Assembly (NCBI GenBank): GCA_964384235.1 | Contig: CAYLJX010000002.1 | Coordinates: 114,660 to 178,659, forward strand | DNA from: an uncultured Bdellovibrionales bacterium | GTDB taxonomy: Bacteria > Patescibacteriota > Minisyncoccia > Moranbacterales > UBA1568 | Length of the DNA stretch: 64,000 bases | Reading direction: 5' to 3' | Shown here: piece after piece, positions 5,639 to 57,225 of the stretch | Position numbering within the stretch: the first letter of the stretch is position 1 | Layout: each line of letters begins with the position of its first letter | Notes under the pieces: generated by a model | What the model was told of the DNA's origin: nothing | Databases searched by the model: none | The model's input: the letters and a program-made list of their open reading frames with translations, nothing else | Program-made: the position numbers and the translations under genes

Positions 5639-5702
5639 AACGGTTAACGGGTTACGAGTTAAAAAGTTAAAAACCTGTTAACCTGTGAACTTGTTAACTG
5701 GA
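5639..5702. repeat. GTTAAC-rich intergenic repeat (copy 1 of 4)
   Basis: aacggttaacgggttacgagttaaaaagttaaaaacctgttaacctgtgaacttgttaactgg. Shares the gttaac, aaaagttaaaa and gtgaac vocabulary with copies at about 21231, 45240 and 47756. Confidence 0.6.
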
Positions 5703-5720: not shown

Positions 5721-6710
5721 ATGTCAATCAGAGAAGAAAAAATCGAATTTTTTGAGAAGCACCTGCTCGACTTTTTCAAGAAGGCCGGGCGGGAACATTT
5801 GCCGTGGAGGAAGAAACAGATTACGGCGTACGAGGTGTGGGTGTCGGAGATCATGCTCCAGCAGACTCAAGTTGCGCGCGTCATCTCGTACTACGAGAAT
5901 TTTTTGAAGCGTTTCCCAACGGTCGAGGAGCTTGCGCAGGCGTCGTGGGAAGAATTTCTCCCGTACTACCAGGGTCTCGGCTACTATGCCCGCGGACGAA
6001 ACATGCTCAAGGCGGCACAGATGGTCGTAAAAGAGTACGATGGAAAATTTCCACGTGACAAGAAACTTCTCGAAAGCATTCCTGGTATCGGTCCCTACAC
6101 GGCCGCGGCCATCATGAGCTTCGCCTACGGTGACGACCATCTGGCGTGGGATACCAATCTTAAGCGGGTAACGGGCAGGTTCTTTTTTGGGAGCAAGGGT
6201 GCGCCGATAGATGAGGCAGAATGGGAAAACCGTCTGACGATAAAGAGGAAAACTCTCAACGCCGCGCTCATGGATTTCGGGAGCGCGATATGCGTCGCCC
6301 GGCCCAAGTGCGGAGCGTGTTCTCTTAAGGAGAAATGTATTTACTACAAGGAGAAAGGGAATCAAGAATCTAGAATCATGAATCAAGAATTAGGAAAAGA
6401 AAAAAATCCAAAAAAAAGAACAGATTGGAAAGAGGCGCGAGCAGTAGTTATCCTGCACGAGAATCATAAGAAGTACTACTCGTCAGTGAAAAAAGAATAC
6501 AAACCGTTCGTCCTTCCGAGCGGGTACAATACGCGCGCGGGTATCAAGAAATATTTCAAGGAGAAACATGGACTCGATCTCTCTGTTCGTCCGCCGCACA
6601 AAAAATCCGTCATCAAGGGAAAACCGACGCTCTTCGTGAACGCTCAGATTCTCCTTGGCGAGCCGAAATTCACTGTGTTCTCGAAAGAGATTTTGATGAG
6701 TGACGAGTAG
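5721..6710 (+). CDS. A/G-specific adenine DNA glycosylase (MutY-family HhH-GPD glycosylase) with a Lys-rich C-terminal extension
   Basis: LQQTQV, HhH-GPD region PGIGPYTAAAIMSFAYG, and 4Fe-4S cysteine cluster CxxxxxxCxxCxxxxxC. ATG at 5721 preferred over the GTG at 5685, which lies inside the repeat. Confidence 0.7.
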   Translation: MSIREEKIEFFEKHLLDFFKKAGREHLPWRKKQITAYEVWVSEIMLQQTQVARVISYYENFLKRFPTVEELAQASWEEFLPYYQGLGYYARGRNMLKAAQMVVKEYDGKFPRDKKLLESIPGIGPYTAAAIMSFAYGDDHLAWDTNLKRVTGRFFFGSKGAPIDEAEWENRLTIKRKTLNAALMDFGSAICVARPKCGACSLKEKCIYYKEKGNQESRIMNQELGKEKNPKKRTDWKEARAVVILHENHKKYYSSVKKEYKPFVLPSGYNTRAGIKKYFKEKHGLDLSVRPPHKKSVIKGKPTLFVNAQILLGEPKFTVFSKEILMSDE

Positions 6711-6784
6711 TGCTATACTTCAAGTAAAGGATTTTTCTGTCAGTAATTTTGACTTTTGCCTTTTGAATTTTGACTTTCTTTCCT

Positions 6785-21230: not shown

Positions 21231-21345
21231 CAGTTAATCGGTTGAAGGGTTAACAAGTTCACAGGTTAGCAGATTTTTCGATAAAAAGTCAATTCTTGAA
21301 TCCTTACTTGTAACTTTTTAACCTGTTAACCGGGGAACTGGAATT
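21231..21345. repeat. GTTAAC-rich intergenic repeat (copy 2), between rpmI and rplT
   Basis: gttgaagggttaacaagttcacaggttagc...aactttttaacctgttaaccgggg. Confidence 0.55.
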
Positions 21346-22114: not shown

Positions 22115-22133
22115 TGTTCCGCGTATTAAAAAG

Positions 22134-22528
22134 TGGAGTTGATGGGAATCGCACCCATGTCCAGGCATGTTTTTCCAAAATAGTCTACAAGCTTAGTGTC
22201 GCTTGGCATGAAAGAGGAGGGTAGAAGCGGACGAAATCCCTCATCAGTCTCTTCTTCTGCAACAGGTCCTGAAAATGAAGAGAAGGAAGATTCTCAGGCT
22301 GCCTCGATGATATGGCACCGGATGACTCGTATCGAGAATAGGAGGTCCGATGGCTCACGCGATTAGGCGCGGGCAAAAGCGAAAGACGGAGCAAACGCCG
22401 AAGCGATCGCGGTCTTGGCCTTGGTGATGAAGTTTGCAGTTATCATCGTGGGAACGAGTTTTACGATCATGTTCCCGAGATCGGCTTGCGTATTTTGAAA
22501 GTACATCCTGTCGAGTCTAGACAACCCC
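22134..22528 (-). ncRNA. ssrA: tmRNA (SsrA)
   Basis: On the minus strand. 5' end GGGGUUGUCUAGACUCGACAGG (tRNA-like 5' half). 3' end ACAUGGGUGCGAUUCCCAUCAACUCCA: T-arm plus acceptor strand pairing with the 5' GGGGUUG, giving a G3:U70 pair. Internal candidate tag frame GCA AAC ... GCC TAA. Directly downstream of smpB on the same strand. Confidence 0.55.
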
Positions 22529-22707
22529 TTGGTCATTGCAATAGGCGTGTTGCCATTGTGATGACTGAGCGATAGTGTAGAATGCGGTTTTTCTTTTTGG
22601 ATTGCTCAAATTTTAAATTTCTAATTTCAAATTTCTAAACAAAACCGAATGACTGAATGTCTGAAACATTAAAAATTCGGACTTGATTCAAAATTCTGAA
22701 TTCAAAA

Positions 22708-23154
22708 TTAGAAATTCTTTAAAGCTCGCTCGATCTTTCGTTTCGCTTCACGCTTCCCGATGTCCGAGCGCTTGTCGTAGGCTTTTTTCCCCTTGCCCAC
22801 GGCAAACTCCAACTTGACGAGTTGTTTCTTAGTATACAGTCGAATGGGCACTAAAGTCAAGCCTTCGACGCGTGATTTTCCTATCAGAGAGCGGATTTCC
22901 CGACGACGGAGGAGGAGTTTTCTGGAACGAGTGTCTTCGTGCCTCGTGTCCCGGTGGGCATGTTGATAACGAGGGATGAGGGCATTGGTGAGGTAGAGTT
23001 CGCTTCCTTTGACCGTGACAAAGGCTCCTTTGAGGCTTGCATGTCCAGTTTTGACGGATTTTACCTCGGCTCCGGTCAATACCAAACCCGCCTCATATCG
23101 ATCAGAGAGGGCATAATCGAAACTCGCTCGTTTGTTGGTAGCAATGACTTTCAT
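22708..23154 (-). CDS. smpB: SsrA-binding protein SmpB
   Basis: MKVIATNKRASFDYALSDRYEAGLVLTGAEVKSVK... ATG at 23154 within ORF 22708..23268. Confidence 0.85.
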   Translation of the reverse strand: MKVIATNKRASFDYALSDRYEAGLVLTGAEVKSVKTGHASLKGAFVTVKGSELYLTNALIPRYQHAHRDTRHEDTRSRKLLLRRREIRSLIGKSRVEGLTLVPIRLYTKKQLVKLEFAVGKGKKAYDKRSDIGKREAKRKIERALKNF

Positions 23155-23274
23155 AGTATCTAGTATGTAGTATTGGGTATTTAGGGGGAAGGAGCAAGGG
23201 TGATTGACTTGATATGGGAAAAATAGTACTATACCAAGTCGAAGATCACTTCGACTCTTCTTTATCAACTCACC

Positions 23275-23791: not shown

Positions 23792-25414
23792 ATGAAGATT
23801 CTGATCGAGAAACAATTGAGAGAAGCGATACGGGCATTGCAGGAAACAGGGATACTTCCTGCTTTTGATGTTCCTGGAATCCGTGTGGAGCGGCCCAAGG
23901 ACGATCAGTTCGGGGAGTATACGACCAATGTCGCATTGATGATCTCGAAGCAGGCAGGAAAGAGCCCGAGGGAGATAGCGGAAAAAATCAGAGAACAGCT
24001 AACAGAGAACAGTGAGCAGAATACTCTTTTTGAGAAAGTGGAAGTCGCAGGGCCGGGACATCTGAATTTTTATCTGTCGCAGGAGGCGCTCACGAACGTC
24101 GTGCGGGAGGTTTTGGAAAAAGGAGGATCATTCGGTGATTCGAATATCGGCGTAGGGGAGAAAGTGAACAACGAATTTATTTCGGCCAATCCGACGGGAC
24201 CCTTGCATCTTGGCAATGGCCGTGGCGGATTTTATGCCGATTCACTCTCGCGCGTCTTGCGAAAGAGCGGCTATGACGTGACGAACGAATACTATATCAA
24301 CGACGCCGGCGAGCAGGTGATGAAACTGGGGCATAGTGTCTTAAAGGACAGCGAGGCAGTCTATGGCGGCGACTATATCGACGCGCTCAATGAACAGCTA
24401 ACAGCGAACAGTGAACAGAAAAACCTGAATGCGAAAGAAATTGGGGAGTGGGCGGCGGAGATCGTGATGGAGGAGATGGTCAAGAAGACACTCTCTGAAC
24501 AGATGGCTATCTCGTTTGATGTTTTCACGTCAGAGAAGAAGGATGTCGTGGAGAAAGGTTTCGTAGACAAGGCTATCGAGATTTTCAAAGAAAAAGGGCT
24601 AGCGTTCGAAGAAGAGGGGGCACTTTGGCTTCGTACCACCGAGTTCGGTGACGACAAGGACCGCGTGCTCGTGAAGCAAGACGGCTCTCGGACGTACTTC
24701 GCTTCCGACTGTGGATACATCTTGCAGAAAATAGAGCGTGACTTTACGAGACTCATCGAGACATGGGGCGCTGACCATCACGGCTATGTGGCGCGTTTCA
24801 AGGCAGCAGCACAGGCGCTCGGGTTTCAGGGGAAAATCGATTTCCTTCTTGTTCAGCTCGTGAAGCTCGTCAAGGACGGCGTCGAGGTGAGGATGAGCAA
24901 GCGTGCCGGCAACGTGGTGACGATCGACGAGCTCATCGAGACGGTCGGGCACGACGTGGCGCGGTTCTTTTTCCTTATGTACGCGCCGGAGACACATATG
25001 AACTTCGATCTCGGGCTCGCCGAGGAGCGCTCCGCCAAGAACCCGGTCTTCTACGTGCAGTATGCGCACGCGAGGCTCGCGAGTATTCTGCGCAAAGCCG
25101 AGGAGGAAGGATTCGTATCGGACGGCGCCGACCTCTCCCTTCTTATGCATCCCAAGGAGCGTGAACTCATGCGCGAGCTCCTCTTTTTTCCGGAACTCGT
25201 CGAGACAGTCTCGGAAGACTTTTCCGTGCACAAGCTGCCGCAGTATGCTATCCGTCTTGCCGACAAGCTCCATTCTTTCTATGATGAGTGTCGGGTGCTC
25301 GATGCCGAGAATCAGTCTCTCTCGGCGGCACGCCTCGAACTCATCCGTTCTGTCAAGATCGTCCTCGGTGAAACCCTCTCCCTCATGGGTATCGACGCCC
25401 CGGAGAGGATGTAA
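23792..25414 (+). CDS. argS: arginyl-tRNA synthetase
   Basis: ANPTGPLHLGNGRG (HIGH-class motif), class I ArgRS domain order, 540 aa. Confidence 0.9.
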   Translation: MKILIEKQLREAIRALQETGILPAFDVPGIRVERPKDDQFGEYTTNVALMISKQAGKSPREIAEKIREQLTENSEQNTLFEKVEVAGPGHLNFYLSQEALTNVVREVLEKGGSFGDSNIGVGEKVNNEFISANPTGPLHLGNGRGGFYADSLSRVLRKSGYDVTNEYYINDAGEQVMKLGHSVLKDSEAVYGGDYIDALNEQLTANSEQKNLNAKEIGEWAAEIVMEEMVKKTLSEQMAISFDVFTSEKKDVVEKGFVDKAIEIFKEKGLAFEEEGALWLRTTEFGDDKDRVLVKQDGSRTYFASDCGYILQKIERDFTRLIETWGADHHGYVARFKAAAQALGFQGKIDFLLVQLVKLVKDGVEVRMSKRAGNVVTIDELIETVGHDVARFFFLMYAPETHMNFDLGLAEERSAKNPVFYVQYAHARLASILRKAEEEGFVSDGADLSLLMHPKERELMRELLFFPELVETVSEDFSVHKLPQYAIRLADKLHSFYDECRVLDAENQSLSAARLELIRSVKIVLGETLSLMGIDAPERM

Positions 25415-26659: not shown

Positions 26660-26940
26660 GCGGGTGATACAGTGGCGGTACAATATTTGAAAGGCGATGA
26701 AGGGATCATCCTCCTGGAGCTCCAAGAAGAAAGCCTTTGCGGCGAGTAGAACTTGGCGGGCACGCCCGTAACAGCCGGAATGAAGGGTATTTTGTATTAT
26801 GTATTTTGTATTATGTATTCCTTATACATAATACTTGATACCAGATACTTCATACCGAACTGAGGTGGTACCACGCTCCGACTCCTTATCGGTCGTTCAG
26901 CGTCCTTAGCACAGAGCGTGTTAAGGATTTTTTGTTTTTA
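26660..26940 (+). promoter_or_regulatory. candidate T-box riboswitch leader (Ile-specific) with intrinsic terminator, upstream of ileS
   Basis: T-box core match AGGUGGUACCACGC at about 26863-26876 (consensus AGGGUGGNACCGCG). Candidate specifier AUC-A at about 26704-26711. Downstream terminator ccttagcac-agagc-gtgttaagg plus T-run at about 26904-26939. The motif 3' half cacgctc can pair with gagcgtg inside the terminator. Confidence 0.4.
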
Positions 26941-26945
26941 TAATT

Positions 26946-29900
26946 ATGTCATTCAAAAAAGTTCCGTCGCAGGTGAGTTTTCCGAAATTGGAGGAGGAGG
27001 TCCTCAAGTATTGGGAGGAGAACAAGATCTTCGAGAAGTCGGTGGAGAAAAATCCCGAGGACAAGACGTTCATTTTTTACGAAGGGCCGCCGACGGCTAA
27101 TGGCAAGCCGGGACTTCATCATGTCCTCGCACGCTCGTTCAAGGACATCATCCCGCGCTACAAGACGATGAAAGGTTATCGTGTCGAGCGCAAGGCCGGC
27201 TGGGACACGCACGGGTTGCCGGTGGAACTCCAGGTGGAAAAAGCACTCGGCCTCAGGAACAAACAGGACATCGAGAATATCGTGCCGGGCGATGCGCGGG
27301 CGAGTGTCATCGAGTTCAACAAGAAGTGCAAGGAATCCGTGTGGGAGTACCGCGACCTCTGGGAGAAGCTCACGCGGCGCATGGGTTATTGGGTCGATAT
27401 GGAACACCCGTACGTGACGTACGAGAACGAATACATCGAGTCGGTGTGGTGGCAGCTCGCGCAGGTCGCGGCACTGAAAAACGAGAAAGGGGAATCTTAT
27501 CTCTACAAGGGACACAAAGTCGTTCCGTACTGCTACCGCTGCGGAACAGCGCTCTCCTCGCACGAGGTGGCGCAGGGGTATCAGACTGTGAAGGATAATT
27601 CAGTGTATGTGAAATTCCAGTTAACAGCGAACAGCGAACAGAAAACGGAAAACAAGACATATCTTTTGGCATGGACCACTACGCCTTGGACTTTACCAGG
27701 AAACGCGGCTTTAGCTGTAAAAAAAGATGAAGTCAAATATATAACACTTGAAACTGAAGCTGATACGTCAAATTTAAAAAAAGGCGATCAAGTAGTCTTT
27801 GCTTTTACCCATGAGATATTAGGACGTGTTTTAGGTGATAATTTTAAGGAATTTCATAAGAGTAACCATGATTTATTGAATGCTGTTCCTGAGGCATACG
27901 AAACAGAAACCGGTGTGAGATATAAAGTTATAGGATTATGTGATGGGAATGAATTGTTAGGAAAACTATACGAACCTCTTTACGAAACCACAGGAAAAGA
28001 TGCGGAGAAATGTTACAGAGTGGTGGCGGGGGATTTCGTCACGACGACCGATGGTACGGGGATCGTGCACATCGCGCCGGCGTTCGGTGAGGATGATGCC
28101 AACGTCGGCAAGGAGAACGGTCTGCCGACGCTCCTGACTGTAGAGACGGACGGAACGCTCATGAAAGGTTTCGGTCTGCCGGGTGAGGGGATTCCGGTCA
28201 AGAAAAAGAACGACAAGAACCGCTATGCCGTGGACGATCTCATCATCGAGGACCTGAAACAGCGAGGACTGTTTTTCAATGAAGAAGTGTATGAGCATGA
28301 GTACCCGTTCTGCTGGCGTTGTGACACGCCGCTTATCTACTTCGCCAAGCCGTCGTGGTTCATCCGAATGGGTGAGCTTCGGGACGAACTCGTAAAGAAC
28401 AACGAGAGTATCACCTGGGTGCCGGAACATATCAAGGAAGGGCGCTTCGGCGAGTGGTTGCGCGGCGTGAAGGATTGGGCCATCTCACGTGAACGTTACT
28501 GGGGTACGCCGCTTCCCATTTGGGAATGTGACACGTGTGATACACGGAAAGTGATTTCTTCGACTGACGAACTGACGAAATTTTCCGGTAAGAAACTCGA
28601 AGATGTGCATAAGCCGTACATTGATGATGTGACGTGGTCATGCGAATGCGGTGGTACGATGAAACGGACGCCGGAAGTGCTCGACGTGTGGTTCGATTCC
28701 GGCGCGATGCCCTTGGCGCAGTTTACCTATCCGGAGCAGTCCGATGCGGTGGTCAAGGAAAAAATCGAATCCGGGAAATATTTCCCGGCGGACTATATCT
28801 GCGAGGCGATCGACCAGACGAGAGGGTGGTTCTATACGCTCCATGCCATCGCGACGCTTCTCAATAAGGCCGGGAAAGTGCCGGTAGGCAACGCCTACAA
28901 GAACGTCATCTGTCTCGGGCACGTGCTCGACGCGCAGGGCAAAAAGATGTCCAAGTCCAAGGGGAATGTCATCGATCCGTTCCAGATGTTTGAGGAATAC
29001 GGTGCCGATCCCTTGCGCTGGATGCTCTTCTCGATCAATCAGCCGGGACTACCGAAGCGTTTCGACGTGAAGGGGATGCGCGACGTGCAGAACCGCGTGT
29101 TCCGTATGCTCTGGAACTCGTACTCGTTCTTCATGACGTATGCGGCAATCGACGGTTGGCAGCCAAAAGCTACAAGCCACAAGCCACAAGCTACAAGCTT
29201 GCTCGACCGATGGATCGTTTCGGAATTACAGATGCTTATTAGGGGGGTCGATGGATCGCTTGCTGCTTATGATGTCTATACACCGACCAAGAAGATCGAG
29301 GTGTTCATTGATAATCTCTCCAATTGGTACATCCGTCGGAGCCGCGACCGCTTCTGGAAATCAGATGATGATACTGACAAGAACCAGGCATATCAGACGC
29401 TCTATGATGTGCTCGTGACGCTCTCGAAATTGATGGCCCCGTTCACGCCGTTCGTCGCCGAAGAAATCTATAGGGGATTAACAGGAAAAGAGTCCGTACA
29501 TCTCGCAGACTGGCCGGAGGCGGATGAAAAATTGATTGATGAAAACCTGAATGAAGAGATGCAACACGCCAGATTTATTGTGACGATGGGATTGAAAGTC
29601 CGCGCCGATGAAAAAATTAAAGTTCGTCAGCCACTTCAGAAAATAACAGCACGCCCGCTTGAGAAGGAACTGCAAGGAATTGTGTTGGATGAACTGAATG
29701 TGAAGGAATATGTCGAGCGTAAGGAAATGAACGAACTAGTTGAACTTGATCTGACTCCCAATGATGATCTTAGACTCGAGGGTGAGATGAATGAGATCAA
29801 CCGGGCAATCCAGGATGGCCGCAAGAAGGCGGAGTTTAATGTGGAGGACCGGATCGTACTCGGCTATCAGGGAAAGGAGGAAGTTTTTGAGAAGTTCGGT

Positions 29901-30020
29901 GATGAGATTGCAAAGAAAATCCTCGCGACGGAAGTAAAGAATGAAAATCTCACCGACGCCGAATACTCCGGAACGGTCGAAATCGAAGGAGAATCATTCT
30001 TGTTCTGGCTCAAACGGTAG
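26946..30020 (+). CDS. ileS: isoleucyl-tRNA synthetase
   Basis: PPTANGKPGLHHVLARSFKDI (HIGH-like region), KMSKSKGN, editing CP1 domain, 1024 aa. Confidence 0.9.
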   Translation: MSFKKVPSQVSFPKLEEEVLKYWEENKIFEKSVEKNPEDKTFIFYEGPPTANGKPGLHHVLARSFKDIIPRYKTMKGYRVERKAGWDTHGLPVELQVEKALGLRNKQDIENIVPGDARASVIEFNKKCKESVWEYRDLWEKLTRRMGYWVDMEHPYVTYENEYIESVWWQLAQVAALKNEKGESYLYKGHKVVPYCYRCGTALSSHEVAQGYQTVKDNSVYVKFQLTANSEQKTENKTYLLAWTTTPWTLPGNAALAVKKDEVKYITLETEADTSNLKKGDQVVFAFTHEILGRVLGDNFKEFHKSNHDLLNAVPEAYETETGVRYKVIGLCDGNELLGKLYEPLYETTGKDAEKCYRVVAGDFVTTTDGTGIVHIAPAFGEDDANVGKENGLPTLLTVETDGTLMKGFGLPGEGIPVKKKNDKNRYAVDDLIIEDLKQRGLFFNEEVYEHEYPFCWRCDTPLIYFAKPSWFIRMGELRDELVKNNESITWVPEHIKEGRFGEWLRGVKDWAISRERYWGTPLPIWECDTCDTRKVISSTDELTKFSGKKLEDVHKPYIDDVTWSCECGGTMKRTPEVLDVWFDSGAMPLAQFTYPEQSDAVVKEKIESGKYFPADYICEAIDQTRGWFYTLHAIATLLNKAGKVPVGNAYKNVICLGHVLDAQGKKMSKSKGNVIDPFQMFEEYGADPLRWMLFSINQPGLPKRFDVKGMRDVQNRVFRMLWNSYSFFMTYAAIDGWQPKATSHKPQATSLLDRWIVSELQMLIRGVDGSLAAYDVYTPTKKIEVFIDNLSNWYIRRSRDRFWKSDDDTDKNQAYQTLYDVLVTLSKLMAPFTPFVAEEIYRGLTGKESVHLADWPEADEKLIDENLNEEMQHARFIVTMGLKVRADEKIKVRQPLQKITARPLEKELQGIVLDELNVKEYVERKEMNELVELDLTPNDDLRLEGEMNEINRAIQDGRKKAEFNVEDRIVLGYQGKEEVFEKFGDEIAKKILATEVKNENLTDAEYSGTVEIEGESFLFWLKR

Positions 30021-34491: not shown

Positions 34492-35610
34492 ATGTGGGAA
34501 GAACAAGGAAGAACAGGAACCAAGCGTTACGGAATGTTGAAAACGAGGGGAGGAGTGATACCCACTCCTTTTTTCATGCCGGATGCGACGAGGGCGTCGG
34601 TGCGGGGACTTTCCAAGGACGATCTGAACACGGTCGGCGTATGGCCGATGGTGGTGAATACGTACCATCTCATGCTTCAGCCGGGCGTTGAATTGATCAA
34701 ACAAGCGGGAGGCACGCATCGTTTCATGAACTCTGACGGACCGCTCCTCTCTGATTCCGGCGGGTACCAGGTCTACTCGCTCATTCACAAGAATCCGGAA
34801 CTGGGAAAGATCACCGAAGAGGGGGCGGAGTTTCGCTCGCCTCTTGATGGTCGCAAGCATCTCCTGACGCCGGAGCGTTCCATCGGGATCCAGTTCGATC
34901 TCGGCGTCGACATGATGGTCTGTCTCGATGACCCGCGCCCCAATGATGCGCCACGGGAAGAGATCGTGGCCGCGGTGGACCGTACGATCCGCTGGGCGAA
35001 GCGGTGCAAGGAAGAGTACGACAGACAAGTGGTCGCGCGCGGAATGAATGATGAGGCAAGACCGCTCCTCTTCGGTGTGGTACAGGGCGGGATGCTCGTG
35101 GAAGAACGGAAGCGCTGTGCCGAGGGGCTGGTCGCGATCGGTTTCGACGGGTACGGTTTCGGTGGTCGGCATGTGGACGGTGACGGCCGATTTCTCGAGG
35201 AGATCGTCAGGGAGACCGCGTCGTTCATCCCGGAAGACAAACCGCGTTTCGCGCTCGGGGTCGGGACGCCTCAGGATATCGTGCGCTGCCATGCGCTCGG
35301 ATGGGACATGTTTGACTGCGTCATCCCCACCCGTGAAGGAAGACACGGCCGTTTGTTCGTGTTTAACCCACAAGCTACCAGCTACCAGCTACAAGCTGAT
35401 TTCTACGAAACGATCAATATCACGAACGAACAGTACAAGGATGACTTCGCGCCGGTGGATGCAGCATGCGATTGTCTCCTGTGTACGAAATACACCAAAG
35501 CGTATCTCAAACATCTTTTCAAAGTAGCTGACCCGCTCGCCGGCCGTCTCGCTTCGATGCACAACTTGCGCTTCTATATGAAGCTGATGGAAAAACTCCG
35601 GGAGGAGTAA
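34492..35610 (+). CDS. tgt: queuine tRNA-ribosyltransferase
   Basis: LGVGTPQDIVRCHALGWDMFDCVIPTREGRHG and C-terminal Zn site CDCLLC...H. Confidence 0.85.
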   Translation: MWEEQGRTGTKRYGMLKTRGGVIPTPFFMPDATRASVRGLSKDDLNTVGVWPMVVNTYHLMLQPGVELIKQAGGTHRFMNSDGPLLSDSGGYQVYSLIHKNPELGKITEEGAEFRSPLDGRKHLLTPERSIGIQFDLGVDMMVCLDDPRPNDAPREEIVAAVDRTIRWAKRCKEEYDRQVVARGMNDEARPLLFGVVQGGMLVEERKRCAEGLVAIGFDGYGFGGRHVDGDGRFLEEIVRETASFIPEDKPRFALGVGTPQDIVRCHALGWDMFDCVIPTREGRHGRLFVFNPQATSYQLQADFYETINITNEQYKDDFAPVDAACDCLLCTKYTKAYLKHLFKVADPLAGRLASMHNLRFYMKLMEKLREE

Positions 35611-37686: not shown

Positions 37687-37783
37687 AAAGTAGAACCACC
37701 ACTCGTCCGAAAAAATCGGACAACGTAGATTAGATTTTCAGATATACCTGATACATACTACGTAATACATAATACTGACGGGA

Positions 37784-42556: not shown

Positions 42557-42560
42557 AGAC

Positions 42561-42656
42561 ATGTAGAAAGTATCATGTAGTATGTATCATGTATGGGATA
42601 GAATGCGTGATACCGAATACAAGATACTTGATACATAATACGATATACATAATACG
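42561..42656. repeat. GTAT/ATAC-rich intergenic repeat (one of six copies)
   Basis: catgtagaaagtatcatgtagtatgtatcatgtatgggatagaatgcgtgataccgaatacaagatacttgatacataatacgatatacataatacg. Shares TACATAATAC / GTATTATGTA and GATACCGAATAC modules with copies at about 23156, 26789, 37741, 48755 and 57118. Confidence 0.55.
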
Positions 42657-43502
42657 ATGCTTGATATCCATACCCATCTCTATTGGAAGGACTTCGATGA
42701 GGATCGGGACGATGTCGTCCTGCGGGCGAGGGCGGCCGGCGTGTCGAAGATGATCTCCGTCGGGACGGATATGGAGACGAGCCGGCAGGCTATCCAGATA
42801 GCGGAGGCGCATGAGGGGATATGGGCGAGTATCGGTATTCATCCGCACGAGTTCAACGAGTCCGAGATTTCCCATCTGGAATCCTGGGGGAAGGAATTGC
42901 GGGAGCTTGCGAAGCACCCGAAAGTCATCGGCATAGGCGAGTGCGGCTTGGACTACTTCGGACGCGACCGGGAGGTATCCGACGATGCGAAAGCCAGACA
43001 GAAGGCGGCTTTCCTCATGCAGCTGGAGCTCGCTTCGGAACTCGACCTGCCTCTCATCATCCATACCCGCCCCTCCTCGGATACTCAGGATGCTTACGAA
43101 GATGTCTTTGGTATTTTGAAAGCTAATGCAGCTAGTGAAGCTAGGAAGCTAAAAGCTGTCTTACATTGCTACCAAGGCGATATTGAAGTCACCAAAAAGT
43201 TCCTCGAACTGCCGAACGTGTACTTCTCCTTTGCCGGGAATATTACCTATCCGGTGAAACAGGCGCTCGTCGGAACCAAGGATGACCTTACGGAAACCGT
43301 AAAACTCGTGCCACTCGAGAGACTCTTCACCGAGACGGATTGCCCCTTCCTTGCGCCGCAGGCGAAGCGGGGAGAGCGCAACGAGCCGAGCTTCGTGCAG
43401 TACGTCGTGGAAAAGGCGGCGGAACTGCATGGTACGGATATGGACGGCATCGCGTCGCAGACCGAGCGGAATTTCGAGCGCGTGTTCGGTGTGGTATCAT
43501 GA
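42657..43502 (+). CDS. tatD: TatD-family metal-dependent DNase/hydrolase
   Basis: MLDIHTHLYWKDF (HxH), downstream His/Glu/Asp ligands, 281 aa. Confidence 0.8.
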   Translation: MLDIHTHLYWKDFDEDRDDVVLRARAAGVSKMISVGTDMETSRQAIQIAEAHEGIWASIGIHPHEFNESEISHLESWGKELRELAKHPKVIGIGECGLDYFGRDREVSDDAKARQKAAFLMQLELASELDLPLIIHTRPSSDTQDAYEDVFGILKANAASEARKLKAVLHCYQGDIEVTKKFLELPNVYFSFAGNITYPVKQALVGTKDDLTETVKLVPLERLFTETDCPFLAPQAKRGERNEPSFVQYVVEKAAELHGTDMDGIASQTERNFERVFGVVS

Positions 43503-43517
43503 GTACGTGTAACTCTT

Positions 43518-43958
43518 TTGAAACGATCTATGTTTGGAAGACTTTTTGGGAAAAAATCTGAAGTTCCAGCAAACGGAATGGAAAAACCGAAGCTGGTGCA
43601 GCCCGGGGAAGTGTCAGAACCGCAAGGCAAGGTGGAAGATAGGATTCTTCGCAGGGAAATCCCGGCTCATAACCCAGGGTTTGATGATACGGATCTGACA
43701 AAGCAAGGGGAAGAGGAACAAGCCGGAGCAAAAGATTCGATCTACGAGCTCCCGACGAGGGACAAGATATATAAGGATTGGCAAAAAGGAGCGGCGGATA
43801 CGACTCCTCCGGAGGAAGGTGCAAATGCTCATGTGGAACTTCCAGCTGCAGGGGAGGACACGAGGGTCGAGAGGGAGAAATTATTGGATCGCATCCGGGG
43901 AATGAAGACTGACTTGCCGGAAAAGAGTGATGACACGGATAAAAGGCTCGCCGCATAG
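43518..43958 (+). CDS. hypothetical charged low-complexity protein
   Basis: No motifs. Highly charged E/K/D-rich. Confidence 0.35.
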   Translation: MKRSMFGRLFGKKSEVPANGMEKPKLVQPGEVSEPQGKVEDRILRREIPAHNPGFDDTDLTKQGEEEQAGAKDSIYELPTRDKIYKDWQKGAADTTPPEEGANAHVELPAAGEDTRVEREKLLDRIRGMKTDLPEKSDDTDKRLAA

Positions 43959-44107
43959 CCTGAAATATCTCGGAGGTTTGACGGTTTTCGTTTTCGGACG
44001 TATACTGGAAGCGCTTTTTTGAAGGCGTGAAGCCTTACAAAAGCGCTTTTTTGTTTAGCCGTATTCTCGTTGTCGGTTGTGAGTTGTAAGTCGTGAGTCA
44101 TTAAGAC

Positions 44108-44860
44108 ATGGAAGTCTCGATTGCTGCGGAAAAACTGTTCAGTCTGGGGAACTTTCCGGTGACCAACGCCTTTTTCATCGGTCTTTTGGTGAGTTTTATT
44201 CTCATCGTCGCGACGCAGCTTGTGGTCCGCAGGAAGCGGTTGGTGCCGCGCGGCCTCCAGAACGTCTTTGAGCTCGTACTGGAAGGACTCCTCTCCCTCA
44301 TCGAAGGCGTGACGCAGGACAAGGCGCAGGCCAAGAAGTTTTTTCCTCTCATCGTGACCATTTTCCTCTTTGTCCTGCTCTCCAACTGGGTCGGTCTCCT
44401 GCCGGGCATGGGGACGGTCGGCCTCGCGCATGGCGAGGGAGAACACGCGACGATCATCCCGTTCCTGCGGAGCACCTCGGCCGATCTCAACTTCACCATG
44501 GCGCTCTCGCTCATCGCGGTCCTGACGACGCAGTTCACCGGGATCGCCGCACTCGGTGTCGTGCGGTACGGCAAGAAATTCCTCGTGAGTCCCTTCCACA
44601 AGCCGTACGGTCTCGGTACCTTCATGGGACTCCTGGAGCTTATCAGTGAGTTCGCCAAGTTTCTCTCCTTTTCCTTCCGTCTGTTCGGCAATATCTTCGC
44701 CGGCGAGATCCTCCTTACGGTGATGCTCCATCTGGTGCCGTACTTCCTGCCGCTCCCGTTCCTTTTTCTCGAGATCTTCGTCGGGTTCATCCAGGCGGTG
44801 GTCTTTGCGATGCTGACCTTGGTGTTCATGAAGATGGCGACACTCGAAGCGGAACACTAA
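44108..44860 (+). CDS. atpB: ATP synthase F0 subunit a
   Basis: FRLFGNIFAGEILL with the conserved Arg, 5 TM helices. Confidence 0.85.
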   Translation: MEVSIAAEKLFSLGNFPVTNAFFIGLLVSFILIVATQLVVRRKRLVPRGLQNVFELVLEGLLSLIEGVTQDKAQAKKFFPLIVTIFLFVLLSNWVGLLPGMGTVGLAHGEGEHATIIPFLRSTSADLNFTMALSLIAVLTTQFTGIAALGVVRYGKKFLVSPFHKPYGLGTFMGLLELISEFAKFLSFSFRLFGNIFAGEILLTVMLHLVPYFLPLPFLFLEIFVGFIQAVVFAMLTLVFMKMATLEAEH

Positions 44861-44930
44861 AAAAGAAGTCAAAAGTCAAAGGTGAAAAGTCAAAAGTCCA
44901 AGTCGAAATTCAAAAGTTTGAATTGAAAAA
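44861..44930. repeat. AAAGTC(A/C) direct-repeat tract between atpB and atpE
   Basis: aaaaagaagtcaaaagtcaaaggtgaaaagtcaaaagtccaagtcgaaattcaaaagtttgaattg. Related tracts at about 6746-6778 (inverted), 16921-16950 and 19571-19600. Confidence 0.5.
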
Positions 44931-45239: not shown

Positions 45240-45312
45240 TATCCGGTTAAAAAGTTAAAAGGTTAACAGGTTTAGGAATCCAAACCCGTTAACTCGTTAA
45301 CCTGCAACTGTC
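45240..45312. repeat. GTTAAC-rich intergenic repeat (copy 3), between atpE and atpF
   Basis: atccggttaaaaagttaaaaggttaacaggtttaggaatccaaacccgttaactcgttaacctgcaactg. Confidence 0.55.
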
Positions 45313-47755: not shown

Positions 47756-47822
47756 CAGTTAACAAGTTAAAAGGTTAACAGCTTAAGAAAGCTTGTTAAC
47801 TTGTGAACTCGTTAACCGAATA
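47756..47822. repeat. GTTAAC-rich intergenic repeat (copy 4), between atpA and atpG
   Basis: cagttaacaagttaaaaggttaacagcttaagaaagcttgttaacttgtgaactcgttaaccg. Confidence 0.55.
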
Positions 47823-47833
47823 ACTGAAGGATT

Positions 47834-48754
47834 ATGGCTTCAGCTCGTGACATCCGACGGCGAATAAAGGGCGTGAAATCCACCGGCAAGATCACCCGGG
47901 CGATGGAGATGATTTCGGCCGTCAAGATGCGCAAGGCCGTGAGTTCGGTGCTCGCCATCCGTCCGTATGCCCAAGGGGCGATTGGGATGCTTCAGCGGCT
48001 TTCCCAGGCGGTCGGCAATGAACAGCATCCGCTTCTCATGGAACGACCGGTAAAGAAAGAACTCTACGTCGTCATCGCCTCCAATCGAGGTCTCTGCGGC
48101 GCGTTCAACGCCCAGATCGGGAAGCGTCTGCGCCAGGTCCTCCTCGAGGATACCGGTCGGGACCGGGTCTTCATTACGATCGGGAAGAAGGCAGACGCCA
48201 TGGTGCGTCGTGTCCAGGGAGAAACCATCGCGTCGTTTCCGGACGTGCTCAACGCCCTCAAGGCGGAGGACCTTCGGCCGGTGGCGCGCGTCATCATGGA
48301 CGAGTTCGAGGCGAAACGCGTCGACCGCGTGGTGATGGTGTACACGGATTTCGTCTCGATGCTCTCGCAGGAGGTGAAGGTCCGGGCGCTCCTCCCGGTC
48401 GCGATCAAGGACACGAGGAAGGCCTTGAACGAAATGGGAGAAATGAGTGAAAAGGGAGAAACGGGAGACGAAAAAGGGAAGGGCGGCATGCAAGCCGAGT
48501 ATCTGATCGAGCCGAGTGCCAAGAAGGTATTGTGGCGGATGATTCCGCGGCTCATCGAGATGGAACTCTATCATGCCGTTCTCGAGAGCAACGCCTCGCA
48601 GGAGTCGGCCCGGATGATGGCCATGCGCAACGCGACCGACGCCGCCAAGGAAATGGTGGCCGACCTCACGCTCGCCTACAACCAGGTCCGTCAGGGCAAG
48701 ATCACGCAGGAAATCGCCGAGCTCTCGGCGGGTATGGCGGCTGTCTCGAAATAG
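47834..48754 (+). CDS. atpG: ATP synthase F1 gamma subunit
   Basis: MASARDIRRRIKGVKSTGKITRAMEMISAVKMRKA N-terminus and conserved C-terminal helix. Confidence 0.85.
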   Translation: MASARDIRRRIKGVKSTGKITRAMEMISAVKMRKAVSSVLAIRPYAQGAIGMLQRLSQAVGNEQHPLLMERPVKKELYVVIASNRGLCGAFNAQIGKRLRQVLLEDTGRDRVFITIGKKADAMVRRVQGETIASFPDVLNALKAEDLRPVARVIMDEFEAKRVDRVVMVYTDFVSMLSQEVKVRALLPVAIKDTRKALNEMGEMSEKGETGDEKGKGGMQAEYLIEPSAKKVLWRMIPRLIEMELYHAVLESNASQESARMMAMRNATDAAKEMVADLTLAYNQVRQGKITQEIAELSAGMAAVSK

Positions 48755-48903
48755 TATTCAGTATTTCGTATATCGTATGGCGTATTCCGGTACGTGATGC
48801 GAGATACCAGATACCGAATCTGGAAGGAATTTTAAAAAAGCACGCAGAAATGATTCAAGACAGTCCGCGTTGCGAACTGTCTTGTCGAGAGGGGTGGCCG
48901 TGG

Positions 48904-53193: not shown

Positions 53194-55632
53194 ATGTCCA
53201 AGTCGTACAACCCCAAGTCCATCGAGGGAAAATGGCAGAAAACATGGGAGAAACAAGGTATCTATCGGCAATACAAGCGGTCGAAAAAGTTCTACGTGCT
53301 CGATATGTTTCCCTATCCGTCGGGCGCAGGGCTCCATGTCGGCCATCCCAAGGGTTACATCGCGACGGACGTGGTAGCACGAATGAAACAACTGCAGGGC
53401 TACGGCGTGCTCCATCCGATGGGATGGGATGCGTTCGGATTGCCGGCGGAGCAGTTCGCCATCAAGAACAAGGTCCATCCGGAAATCGCCGTGAGAAAGA
53501 ACGTCGCGACGTTCAAGAAACAGCTCGCGAAGATCGGTTTCACATACGACTGGGAGCGCGAGATCAACACGACCGACCCGGAGTACTACCGGTGGACGCA
53601 GTGGATCTTTCTCCAACTCTGGAAGAAAGGACTGGCCTACGAGTCATACGATCCGATCAACTGGTGTCCGTCGTGCCAGACGGGACTCGCGAACGAGGAT
53701 CTGGAGCAGGGGAAGTGCGAGCGCTGTGCCAGTGTCGTCGAGAAGAAACCGATGCGACAGTGGGTGCTCGCGATGACCAGGTACGCTGACCGGCTGCTCA
53801 AGGACCTGGATACGCAGAAACTCGAGTGGAGCGAATCGATCAAGGAACAGCAGCGCAACTGGATCGGACGGAGCGAAGGGATGCTTTTTACGTCGCCGAT
53901 CAAGGATAGTGACCTGAAGATCCAGACATTCAGTGCTCATTTTGAAGCATTTCGTGCCGACACATTCGTAGTGATTGCCCCTGATCATCCGATGCTTCCG
54001 AAGCTGCTTGATGGCGTAAAGGACAAGGAAAAAATCCTTCAAGTCTGTTCCGAGATGATCAGGAAACGCGAAGCGGCAGGATATGAGAATCAGAAGGAGA
54101 TCGAAGGGGTATTTACCGGACGACACACGGTGGATCCGGTCGGAAACGGAGAGCTTCCTATCTGGGTAGCGAGCTATGCTTTGGCTGAATATGGTACGGG
54201 TATCGTGAAGTGCTCAGCACACGATGAGCGTGATTTCGCTTTCGCGAAGAAATACGGGATCCGATTGAAACCGGTATTGTTTCCGGAAGATCTGATAGAA
54301 AGGAAAAAAGTCGAGAATCTGGAATATTGCTACAGTGATATGTCGCAGGGGGTTCTGACGGAGCCGGTGGAGTTCAATGGGAAAAAATCAGGCGAGTCCC
54401 GGCAGGAGATTATAGGGTATCTTGCGAAGAATAAGCTTGCCGCAAAGAAAGTCTCCTACAAGATGCGTGACTGGACGTTCTCGCGGCAGCGATACTGGGG
54501 CGAGCCGATTCCGCTCATTTATTGTGAGAAGTGCGGAGTCGTGCCGGTGCCGGAAAAGGATCTACCGGTGCTCCTTCCGAAGGTGAAATCGTATGAGCCG
54601 ACAGGGACGGGAGAATCGCCGCTTGCCAACATCACCAAGTGGGTGAATGTACGGTGTCCGAAGTGCAAGGGCAAGGCTAAGCGAGAAACGAATACCATGC
54701 CGCAGTGGGCGGGGTCCTGCTGGTACTACCTGCGCTACATCGATCCCAAGAGCCGGAAAGCGCTCGTCGACAAGAAGTTAGAGAAGAAGATGATGCCGGT
54801 CGACGTCTATGTCGGCGGGACGGAGCATGCCACGAGGCACCTCCTCTATGCGCGTTTTTGGCACAAATTCCTCTATGATATCAAGGCGGTTTCCGGCAAG
54901 GAGCCTTTCAAGAAGCTCGTTAATCAGGGACTCATCCTTGCTTCCGACGGGCGCAAGATGTCTAAGCGCTGGGGGAATGTCATCAATCCTGACGATATGA
55001 TCGATCAGTTCGGCGCGGACGCATTCCGACTTTATGAGATGTTCATGGGACCGTTCACACAATCGATCGCGTGGAATACGGACGGTGTGGTGGGAACACG
55101 CAGATTTCTGGAGAAGGTGTGGAAACTTCGGGATCGAATATCGAATATCGAATATCGAATATCGAATAAAGATACGGAAACCCTCCTTCACAAGACTATC
55201 AAGAGTGTTACCGAAGATATTGAGGACTTCAAATTCAATACCGCGGTCAGCAGTCTGATGATCTTGGTGAATGCCCTGGAAAAAGAAACCAATATTTCAC
55301 ATTCTACATTCAATATTCTTCTTATCCTTCTCTCTCCGTTTGCGCCGCATATCGCGGAGGAACTCTGGTATGAAATGGGGAACAAGAAGTCCATCTTTCT
55401 TGCCGAGTGGCCGAAGTGGGATAAGCGAAAAATCGTCGCCGAGACGGTGAAGATCGCCGTGCAGGTAAATGGCAAGGTGCGTGCGACGGTCGAGGTGGAA
55501 AGCGGAGCGACAGAAGAGGTAGTGAAAGCGCTCGCGCTCGCCGATACGAACGTCCAAGCGCACGTGGCCGGCAAAGAAATCCGCAAAGCGATCTATGTCC
55601 CCGGGAGAATACTGAATCTGGTGGTTATGTGA
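53194..55632 (+). CDS. leuS: leucyl-tRNA synthetase
   Basis: FPYPSGAGLHVGHPKGY (HIGH), KMSKRWGN, CP1 editing domain, 812 aa. Confidence 0.9.
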   Translation: MSKSYNPKSIEGKWQKTWEKQGIYRQYKRSKKFYVLDMFPYPSGAGLHVGHPKGYIATDVVARMKQLQGYGVLHPMGWDAFGLPAEQFAIKNKVHPEIAVRKNVATFKKQLAKIGFTYDWEREINTTDPEYYRWTQWIFLQLWKKGLAYESYDPINWCPSCQTGLANEDLEQGKCERCASVVEKKPMRQWVLAMTRYADRLLKDLDTQKLEWSESIKEQQRNWIGRSEGMLFTSPIKDSDLKIQTFSAHFEAFRADTFVVIAPDHPMLPKLLDGVKDKEKILQVCSEMIRKREAAGYENQKEIEGVFTGRHTVDPVGNGELPIWVASYALAEYGTGIVKCSAHDERDFAFAKKYGIRLKPVLFPEDLIERKKVENLEYCYSDMSQGVLTEPVEFNGKKSGESRQEIIGYLAKNKLAAKKVSYKMRDWTFSRQRYWGEPIPLIYCEKCGVVPVPEKDLPVLLPKVKSYEPTGTGESPLANITKWVNVRCPKCKGKAKRETNTMPQWAGSCWYYLRYIDPKSRKALVDKKLEKKMMPVDVYVGGTEHATRHLLYARFWHKFLYDIKAVSGKEPFKKLVNQGLILASDGRKMSKRWGNVINPDDMIDQFGADAFRLYEMFMGPFTQSIAWNTDGVVGTRRFLEKVWKLRDRISNIEYRISNKDTETLLHKTIKSVTEDIEDFKFNTAVSSLMILVNALEKETNISHSTFNILLILLSPFAPHIAEELWYEMGNKKSIFLAEWPKWDKRKIVAETVKIAVQVNGKVRATVEVESGATEEVVKALALADTNVQAHVAGKEIRKAIYVPGRILNLVVM

Positions 55633-55707
55633 GACAGAGAAACGGAAAGGAATTATCCCCGTTTCTTTTCCGGATTCAAAATTCTATATTCGATATTCTA
55701 TTCATAT

Positions 55708-57117: not shown

Positions 57118-57225
57118 CGTATCTAGTATCTAGTATCTTGTATTATGTATTGGGTATGATATATTGAATTTTTTTTCCATACATAATACAAAATACATAC
57201 TACATAATACATACTCCTTACTACG

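Follow-up and report, generated by a model that had tools for sequence, protein, structure and literature searches.

The window analysed here, a 64,000-nt stretch of contig CAYLJX010000002.1 (assembly GCA_964384235.1, positions 114,660 to 178,659; GC content 54%), is placed by the homologs of its isoleucyl-tRNA synthetase (IleRS) in Candidatus Moranbacteria/Moraniibacteriota, a lineage of the Candidate Phyla Radiation (CPR). Two genes of the window, ileS and tgt, each contain a short tandem array of 7-nt units within an intact open reading frame (ORF). The original prediction had described these segments as in-frame, hexamer-like repeats that resemble each other at the nucleotide level and lie within conserved enzymes. 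The two genes and their arrays are the following:

26946..30020, + strand: ileS, type-2 IleRS of 1024 aa, intact ORF, identified by Candidatus Moranbacteria IleRS homologs
29161..29199, + strand: flagged ileS heptamer array, AGCCAAA AGCTACA AGCCACA AGCCACA AGCTACA AGCT, residues 739-751 (QPKATSHKPQATS)
34492..35610, + strand: tgt, queuine tRNA-ribosyltransferase (Tgt), E = 4e-83 to the Z. mobilis Tgt structures
35370..35397, + strand: flagged tgt heptamer array, ACAAGCT ACCAGCT ACCAGCT ACAAGCT, encoding most of PQATSYQLQA

Homologs of the ileS product contain the Pfam domains PF00133, PF08264 and PF19302. The tgt ORF begins at 34492; other assemblies call the start at 34576, which yields a protein of 344 aa.

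The heptanucleotide unit of the ileS and tgt arrays

The letters and translations quoted for the two segments are correct (CAGCCAAAAGCTACAAGCCACAAGCCACAAGCTACAAGCTTG, translated as QPKATSHKPQATSL, in ileS and CCCACAAGCTACCAGCTACCAGCTACAAGCTGAT, translated as PQATSYQLQAD, in tgt), and both are real tandem repeats at the DNA level, located in frame within intact ORFs of conserved enzymes. The unit, however, is 7 nt rather than 6 nt. Self-identity at lag 6 is only 0.23 in ileS and 0.15 in tgt, compared with 0.74 and 0.63, respectively, at lag 7, so that a hexamer unit was rejected. Tandem Repeats Finder (TRF) likewise reports period 7 for both arrays, with 5.4 copies and 87% matches at 29161-29198 in ileS, and 3.6 copies and 94% matches at 35373-35397 in tgt; the consensus forms are AAGCYAC (5.4 copies) and ACMAGCT (4 copies). 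Each array thus contains at least three head-to-tail copies of a 7-nt unit, which identifies it as a heptanucleotide simple sequence repeat (SSR). The degenerate two-unit pattern ACAAGCYACMAGC, with at most one mismatch allowed, has 7 matches in the window, all of them within the ileS and tgt arrays, against an expectation of 0.12 in shuffled sequences, none of which (0/100) reached 7.

A period of 7 is not a multiple of 3, so that translation passes through all three frames within each array, and the encoded peptides are not repetitive: KATSHKPQATS and PQATSYQLQA contain no tandem repeat and have in common short fragments such as ATS and QA. At the RNA level, the ileS and tgt arrays with their flanks fold no better than shuffled sequences (z = -0.4 and -1.7, respectively) and contain no inverted repeat. 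Given the lack of both an inverted repeat and a significant hairpin, these arrays were not classified as in-frame palindromic mobile elements similar to the Rickettsia palindromic elements (RPEs) or to MITEs (miniature transposable elements with inverted repeats).

For comparison among strains and species, syntenic loci were obtained by exact-protein look-ups (L001-L006), and scans of the collection added loci found through IleRS (L007-L086) and Tgt (L087-L166). The ileS array is identical in the independent assemblies L001-L004 and the tgt array in L001-L003 (L004 ends before tgt); this identity in assemblies from other samples rules against an assembly artefact. No copy-number variation was detected among these strains, the exact proteins being found on 4-6 contigs and the 90% clusters being single-membered. 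Outside a tract of approximately 600 nt in argS, L001-L004 differ from the window by at most 4 single-nucleotide polymorphisms in approximately 10 kb, and because the strains are nearly clonal, the copy-number comparison has little power. Between species, the same loops differ in both the unit and the copy number.

Genic arrays lie on protein loops

The genic arrays fall on loop residues between regular secondary structure elements of large enzymes; they overwrite or extend these loops with little net change in length and are translated in three frames to non-repetitive peptides of low constraint. An AlphaFold model of IleRS was built from 66 homologs (mean predicted local distance difference test score, pLDDT, of 85.9; predicted template modelling score, pTM, of 0.80). 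In this model, residues 739-751, which are encoded by the flagged array, belong to the coil 737-751, which connects helices 708-736 and 752-773; the mean pLDDT is 61 in the 10-residue block 741-750, compared with 91-96 in the neighbouring blocks. The ortholog alignment, which the original prediction had proposed as a check, gave different answers for the two enzymes: the IleRS segment is present in all orthologs, whereas the Tgt segment is part of a 13-aa extension absent from Z. mobilis Tgt. More specifically, the linker 739-751 is found in 120/120 IleRS orthologs and in the solved type-2 IleRS structure (PDB 8c8u) and is just 2 aa longer in the window. Accordingly, the segment is not an insertion, and the flagged ileS array overwrites an existing loop.

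Similar placement is seen for other arrays in synthetase genes of the window:

27623..27653, + strand: second ileS heptamer array, AACAGCG AACAGCG AACAGAA AACGGAA AAC, residues 226-236
55133..55168, + strand: perfect leuS heptamer array, ATCGAAT in 5.1 copies (TRF, 100% matches), encoding ISNIEYRISN

In the IleRS model, residues 226-236 fall in the turn 227-237 between strands 212-226 and 238-244, and residues 230-234 have a pLDDT below 50; the array replaces a loop that is conserved in most orthologs as xGQKIGDFTTDxK. The leuS array, the youngest-looking one in the window, lies between the catalytic and anticodon-binding domains, judging by the Pfam coordinates, and introduces no net insertion compared with PDB 3ziu; on our reading, the linker that contains it in the leucyl-tRNA synthetase (LeuRS) is homologous to the IleRS linker with the flagged array.

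The IleRS linker shows a period-7 signal in several relatives (L005, L007, L015, L023, L095, L125, L138, L151 and L158). In L005 (78% aa identity), it contains a five-unit array of the same length, AAGATAC AAGTAAC AAGATAC AAGCTAC AAACTTA; other examples are CAGCCAA CAGCTAA CAGCCAA CAGTCAA in L125 and five copies of AACCAAC in L151. No array is present in the IleRS linker of L006 (81% identity). Given these orthologous period-7 arrays, the ileS array appears to be an old one that was repeatedly re-homogenised or, at least, to mark a recurrent site.

Some Moranbacteria IleRS are considerably longer (1150-1210 aa) and contain an additional His_Phos_1 (PF00300) or NUDIX (PF00293) domain, as observed in the homologs P0060, P0075, P0080, P0095, P0103, P0110 and P0019. 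In the window, a separate His_Phos_1 gene is located just upstream of ileS, which suggests a fusion of the two genes in the relatives.

In Tgt, the alignment with the Z. mobilis enzyme places the array inside the 13-aa extension of a beta-hairpin turn, between the FTWD and GPINI motifs. The closest relatives carry other sequences at this site, and the 69 distinct Moranbacteria Tgt loops range from 7 aa (LWKTESP in L007, with no repeat) to 55 aa. Among the 44 loops longer than 15 aa, 7 nt is the best period in 28 (64%), compared with 54 of the 880 length-matched control segments from the same genes (6%), and lag-7 self-identity of at least 0.5 is found in 39% of these loops versus 0.2% of the controls. 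The units differ between lineages: ACMAGCT in the window, AAAGTAC/AAATTTC in L006, CAAAAYC in L009, CGAAART in L012 and AATTTCY in L018 and L058, with GTCGAAA, CAACTGA-like, GAATCTC, AAAATCA, GTTAAAA and the widespread AATTTCC found in further loops. Counted by eye, this single hairpin has accommodated at least about 10 unit types.

Most of the other long Tgt loops, approximately 10 in number, contain, instead, in-frame palindromic elements that resemble repetitive extragenic palindromic (REP) sequences or MITEs. Such elements were noted in the Tgt loops of L018, L091, L128, L129, L133, L138, L141, L151, L152, L154 and L157 and in the IleRS linkers of P0033, P0041, P0073 and L100; the encoded peptides (...SREGGNP...LDPRVKPEDD, ...VIPGLIRDPDSGSEAGMT..., ...LDSRLREND... 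and PLKKGEKKSSPF.KGGLEGD) show that they are translated in the same permissive loops, a situation reminiscent of RPEs.

In a rough neighbour-joining tree, the Tgt loop content switches between very close relatives. One such case is the pair L143 and L152. On the upstream side of the loop, the two are 100% identical for 600 nt, and on the downstream side for more than 400 nt, but their loop alleles are completely different, one being a heptamer array and the other a palindromic element, within a patch of approximately 170 nt whose flanks differ synonymously. This patch represents either a short recombination tract, that is, a cassette-like exchange, or an assembly chimera. Near-identical or sister tgt genes with different loop content were also observed in L144 and L158, and in L095 and L100.

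Period-7 arrays in the window and in other genomes

The ileS and tgt arrays are not isolated. A period scan of the window identified 17 period-7 arrays with a score of at least 8, compared with 1.6 in dinucleotide shuffles, and 14 with a score of at least 10, compared with 0.2. Periods 4-6 and 9-12 are near expectation, apart from a small excess at period 6, which is also seen at period 14 (2 versus 0.0 each at a score of at least 10), and the excess at period 8 (4 versus 0.1 at the same score) comes from a separate octamer hairpin element (see below). The composition-corrected excess is therefore centred on period 7, as expected of heptanucleotide SSRs. The units are varied and include GAATCAA, AAGTCAA, AAATTTC, AACAGCG, ATCGAAT, GTATTWT and ATACATA, among others. 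Approximately 7 arrays are genic, located in the genes for a HhH-GPD glycosylase, argS, ileS (two), tgt, leuS and an ORF without assigned function (43829-44872), and approximately 10 are intergenic even though about 90% of the window is coding, which amounts to an approximately 15-fold depletion in genes. As a post hoc observation, tRNA-handling enzymes (argS, ileS twice, leuS and tgt) host 5 of the approximately 7 genic arrays. Further arrays of the window are listed below:

24393..24418, + strand: argS heptamer array, AACAGCT AACAGCG AACAGTG AACAG, with the same unit as the ileS array at 27623
6359..6390, + strand: heptamer array, GAATCAA in 4.6 copies, in the C-terminal part of the HhH-GPD glycosylase ORF
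26787..26856, + strand: intergenic inverted pair of heptamer arrays, GTATTWT in 4.7 copies followed by ATACnnn units, about 90 nt upstream of ileS
57119..57213, + strand: intergenic inverted pair of heptamer arrays, GTATCTA... and ATACATA...
6747-6777, 22608-22635, 23154-23173, 37745-37775, 42560-42658, 44866-44917, 48753-48785 and 55674-55698: further intergenic arrays

Several intergenic arrays end a few bases from predicted start codons, namely those of smpB (23154-23173), an M16 peptidase gene (37745-37775), tatD (42631-42658) and an AI-2E transporter gene (6747-6777). A tmRNA gene (22131-22528, - strand; Rfam, 106.7 bits) adjoins smpB (22708-23154, - strand), with an array of four AAATTTC units in the spacer. 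The Rfam scan of the window detected this tmRNA and one tRNA only, and nothing at or near the arrays.

Inverted pairs of arrays fold as periodic hairpins with 5-bp helices and, between these, internal loops of 2 nt. For the pair upstream of ileS (26787-26856), the predicted folding energy is -29.8 kcal/mol (z = -3.8), which was not matched by any of 200 shuffles (0/200). Other pairs of this kind were found at 57119-57213 and 42560-42658 in the window, at 4493-4572 in L058, where the pair is similarly located upstream of the ileS gene of that genome, and at 1277-1402, 2275-2389 and 4568-4630 in L052. These hairpins could be leader or terminator elements.

The octamer element responsible for the period-8 excess is intergenic and consists of about 3 tandem GTTAAMAR octamers, a short loop and about 3 inverted octamers, which together form a hairpin of approximately 55-60 nt. 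It is present at four sites (5657-5699, 21241-21330, 45246-45301 and 47757-47816), with 16 pattern matches compared with 0.21 expected.

The argS array is located at the edge of the tract that was set apart in the strain comparison. This tract (approximately 24389-25000) accounts for 146 of the 150 mismatches of L003 and 31 of the 33 mismatches of L004 relative to the window (L002, L003 and L004 were compared). In L003, the diverged tract starts with four copies of GGCAAAA at the position of the 3.7 AACAGCK units of the window. The clustering of mismatches suggests a mosaic or recombinant argS allele.

Across the collection, the density of period-7 arrays, which is 0.22 per kb in the window, is patchy. 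High counts were also obtained for the Moranbacteria-like loci L014, L023 and L058, for L019 and L028 from other CPR, and for L052, which is labelled Planctomycetota and has 6 arrays, whereas counts are near zero in most other Moranbacteria loci, and loci from other phyla, with the exception of L052, contain 0-2 arrays each. This lineage-specific patchiness suggests a genome-specific process. After subtraction of the shuffles, the array lengths (window, L014, L019, L023, L028, L052, L058 and L095) show a hump at 25-32 nt, that is, 3.5-4.5 units, and few arrays exceed 36 nt. The 96 arrays fall into 68 canonical unit classes. Certain units are found again in genomes that are not related to each other: AAAAGTC in the window, L019, L022 and L028; AATTTCC in L007, L018 and L019, as well as in the Tgt loops of L144, L153 and L091; and AAGAATC in several genomes.

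Origin of the arrays and comparison with known repeats

Taken together, these observations make it likely that the ileS and tgt segments are heptanucleotide SSRs that were generated at the level of DNA, with selection restricting them to permissive loops. The 7-nt period, the non-repetitive peptides and the different units found at the same loop across lineages point to an origin at the level of DNA rather than of the peptide. The combination of an SSR-generating process with selection is suggested by the same period together with the turnover of units, the depletion of arrays in genes, their confinement to loops and the lack of RNA structure at the genic arrays. Under this scenario, the Candidatus Moranbacteria host genome would have a strong, 7-nt-specific tendency to form short (4-5 units), imperfect arrays; replication slippage or unequal exchange between units would create the arrays and keep them homogeneous, and some patches may be imported by homologous recombination. 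Purifying selection would then remove the variants that break the frame or disturb the structure, such that only in-frame arrays in permissive loops survive, presumably without a function of their own in IleRS or Tgt. The only explanation of the 7-nt specificity proposed in the literature, slippage related to the polymerase footprint, comes from a survey of prokaryotic long SSRs, a class in which heptanucleotide repeats are over-represented in many bacteria (Mrazek et al. 2007, PNAS 104:8472, as cited in PMC4692102 and PMC4679880).

Several observations weigh against this scenario. Slippage by a single unit produces a frameshift, and in essential genes present in single copy this would be lethal, so that the birth of an array requires multi-unit, templated or compensating events, none of which was directly observed. 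The length distribution has a hump at 25-32 nt instead of a monotonic decay, which hints at a characteristic size not predicted by plain slippage. The IleRS linker keeps period 7 across lineages with 63-78% protein identity, and this requires concerted evolution or constraint. Tgt loop arrays occur in loci with no other array in 5-20 kb, which implies a hot spot beyond obvious neutral tolerance. Finally, many intergenic arrays abut start codons or form hairpins, and some of these may be functional.

The frame problem would be solved by block transfer, and the replacement of loops with little net change in length is consistent with such a process. Thus, it is conceivable, albeit rather unlikely, that arrays such as those of ileS and tgt, or argS and ileS, were copied from one another by template switching or ectopic gene conversion, giving rise to a small dispersed family. 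The nucleotide-level similarity noted in the original prediction is real to the extent that ileS and tgt have the unit AGCTACA in common, match at 24/28 bases when aligned in register and both arrange their unit variants in the order A-B-B-A, and AACAGCG is similarly common to argS and ileS. This similarity is weak evidence and does not delineate a distinctive two-member family. The best-window match of 18/21 between the two arrays is equalled by 2.25% of the array pairs from different genomes, and among the 105 array pairs in the window, 5 reach this value, compared with 2.4 expected. Within-genome pairs more than 300 nt apart reach 18/21 in 9.4% of the cases, compared with 3.0% between genomes (P = 2e-6; 138 dereplicated loci), but base composition, which differs between genomes, is a confounding factor that can explain much of this excess. 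A special ileS-tgt family was therefore rejected: the all-pairs comparison within the window is not significant, and these are two of approximately 17 arrays with many units. Unit sharing between ileS and tgt beyond the background is weakly supported, and a family relationship, for example, via templated copying, is possible but not established. Furthermore, the ileS array appears to be old, with orthologous CAGCYAA and ACAAGNN units in relatives, whereas the tgt array is lineage-specific, and an origin in place is favoured by the Tgt arrays of several relatives, which are similar to the ancestral sequence of the site (CGAAA...).

A more far-reaching proposal, and a doubtful one, is that some CPR lineages have a dedicated process that writes repeats specifically of 7 nt, such as a property of replication or repair. 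Combined with short recombination tracts through which strains exchange loop cassettes, this process would repeatedly rewrite the same exposed loops of essential tRNA enzymes, namely the Tgt beta-hairpin and the catalytic-to-anticodon linker of IleRS and LeuRS. These loops would then be not passive junk but hypervariable modules, possibly under diversifying selection, or motifs read by a nucleic-acid-binding protein.

On its own, the second of these variants, in which the 7-nt motifs would be functional binding sites for a single-strand-binding protein with about 7 nt per domain (S1-like or cold-shock-like) that acts on translation or mRNA stability, with the genic copies also used, seems improbable. 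It is consistent with the position of the intergenic arrays at 23154, 37745 and 42631 directly upstream of the smpB, M16 peptidase and tatD starts, with the strong periodic hairpins, in particular the one upstream of ileS (z = -3.8), with the characteristic size of about 25-32 nt and with the reappearance of units across unrelated genomes (four genomes for AAAAGTC, several for AATTTCC and for AAGAATC), and a similar role has been proposed for the TAACTGA repeats of Beggiatoaceae (PMC4679880). However, no single motif emerges from the 96 arrays, which represent 68 unit classes; significant structure is lacking in the genic arrays, and these sit precisely on protein loops, as predicted by a filter at the protein level; and relatives have other units, no array or a palindromic element at the same site.

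We consider even less credible the possibility that the loops are hypervariable because diversifying selection acts on them as exposed parts of tRNA enzymes, for instance, in favour of escape from an inhibitor or toxin, with repeats and recombination merely supplying the variation. The Tgt loop indeed varies from 7 to 55 aa and changes content between very close relatives, as exemplified by the L143/L152 alleles, and 5 of the approximately 7 genic arrays of the window are in tRNA-handling enzymes. Nevertheless, the L143/L152 mosaic could be a chimera of metagenome assembly, and the enrichment in aminoacyl-tRNA synthetases is post hoc and fits an abundance of permissive loops. In addition, Tgt and these synthetases have housekeeping roles in the cytoplasm, and no antagonist that acts at these loops is known. 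What the loops contain can be recognised as DNA of the selfish or slippage type, either heptamer arrays or palindromes, and not as diversity from point mutations.

Phase-variation (contingency) repeats do use units not divisible by 3, and short repeats can be mis-assembled, but contingency loci, a chance pattern and an assembly artefact are all extremely improbable: ileS and tgt are essential, the arrays are short, imperfect and located mid-gene in loops, every assembly examined shows the same in-frame sequence, the 90% clusters contain no length variants, and the 7 pattern matches compare with 0.12 expected.

If the ileS and tgt arrays are indeed SSRs filtered by selection, several consequences follow. 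The surviving genic arrays, having passed a strict frame and structure filter, would provide a natural map of insertion-tolerant loops in IleRS, LeuRS, ArgRS and Tgt, and loops of the Tgt type would offer a system for counting gain, homogenisation and replacement of arrays across lineages. Because array segments inflate the length variation and low-complexity content of CPR proteins, they should be treated as derived from DNA repeats in alignment, annotation and modelling.

Among the known systems, the units of the cyanobacterial short tandemly repeated repetitive (STRR) sequences are reportedly CCCCAGT, TTGGTCA and CAACAGT. The units described here are ACAAGCY and ACCAGCT, the host belongs to Candidatus Moranbacteria and the arrays are coding, so that assignment to the STRR family was rejected. 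The resemblance is in general organisation: STRR (Mazel et al. 1990, J Bacteriol 172:2755, as cited in PMC4692102) and the GGGAATC/GGGGAYT repeats of Xanthomonas and Nostoc (PMC4692102) are arrays of a few to tens of heptamers, with several unit families per genome, sometimes in inverted pairs, and they vary in length and sequence at the same locus between related species. The cyanobacterial and Xanthomonas repeats are, however, built from a small number of defined units in each genome, often rich in G, and lie almost entirely between genes. The present arrays draw on many units, most of which are A/C-rich on the coding strand, and comprise only 3-5.5 units, with a substantial coding share.

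Another match is with the prokaryotic long SSRs (Mrazek et al. 2007, as cited above), which are likewise 7-nt tandem units with a period-7 excess, a patchy distribution among lineages and mostly intergenic copies. According to the accounts of that survey, which predates the CPR genomes, the repeats within genes mostly have unit lengths divisible by 3; here, in contrast, 7-nt arrays lie in frame in essential enzymes and recur at the same loops in many lineages. With the exception of the papers on Borgs, searches of a limited literature library turned up nothing pertinent on heptamer or tandem repeats in CPR, Patescibacteria or Parcubacteria.

The TAACTGA repeats of marine Beggiatoaceae, some cyanobacteria and Bacteroidetes (PMC4679880) are direct repeats of 2-6 heptamers, many of them just upstream of start codons, and in this respect are similar to the intergenic arrays of the window. 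Their single dominant unit has stop codons when read in the forward orientation and thus is excluded from ORFs in that orientation, whereas here there is no dominant unit and the genic arrays are stop-free and translated. RPEs (PMC10969869) also represent repeats of non-protein origin that are tolerated in frame at permissive sites of housekeeping enzymes, but these are palindromic mobile elements of approximately 100-150 bp that form conserved families, unlike the 28-39-nt tandem repeats without inverted repeats analysed here. The Borg tandem repeats (PMC9879509) are similar in being pervasive both between and within genes, in creating new loop or disordered residues when genic and in their rapid turnover. 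The genic Borg repeats, however, are perfect, with units divisible by 3, and produce true amino-acid repeats, whereas the present arrays are imperfect, with 7-nt units, and their peptides (KATSHKPQATS and PQATSYQLQA) are not tandem; a Borg-type assignment was accordingly rejected.

The heptanucleotide element is thus of a known kind. What appears to be undescribed, as far as the searched literature shows, is its host phylum, its in-frame location in essential tRNA enzymes and the way in which the same loops are rewritten time and again. Repeats of this type have long been an unexplained peculiarity of some bacterial genomes, and the arrays described here extend them to CPR/Patescibacteria and to the interior of essential enzymes.

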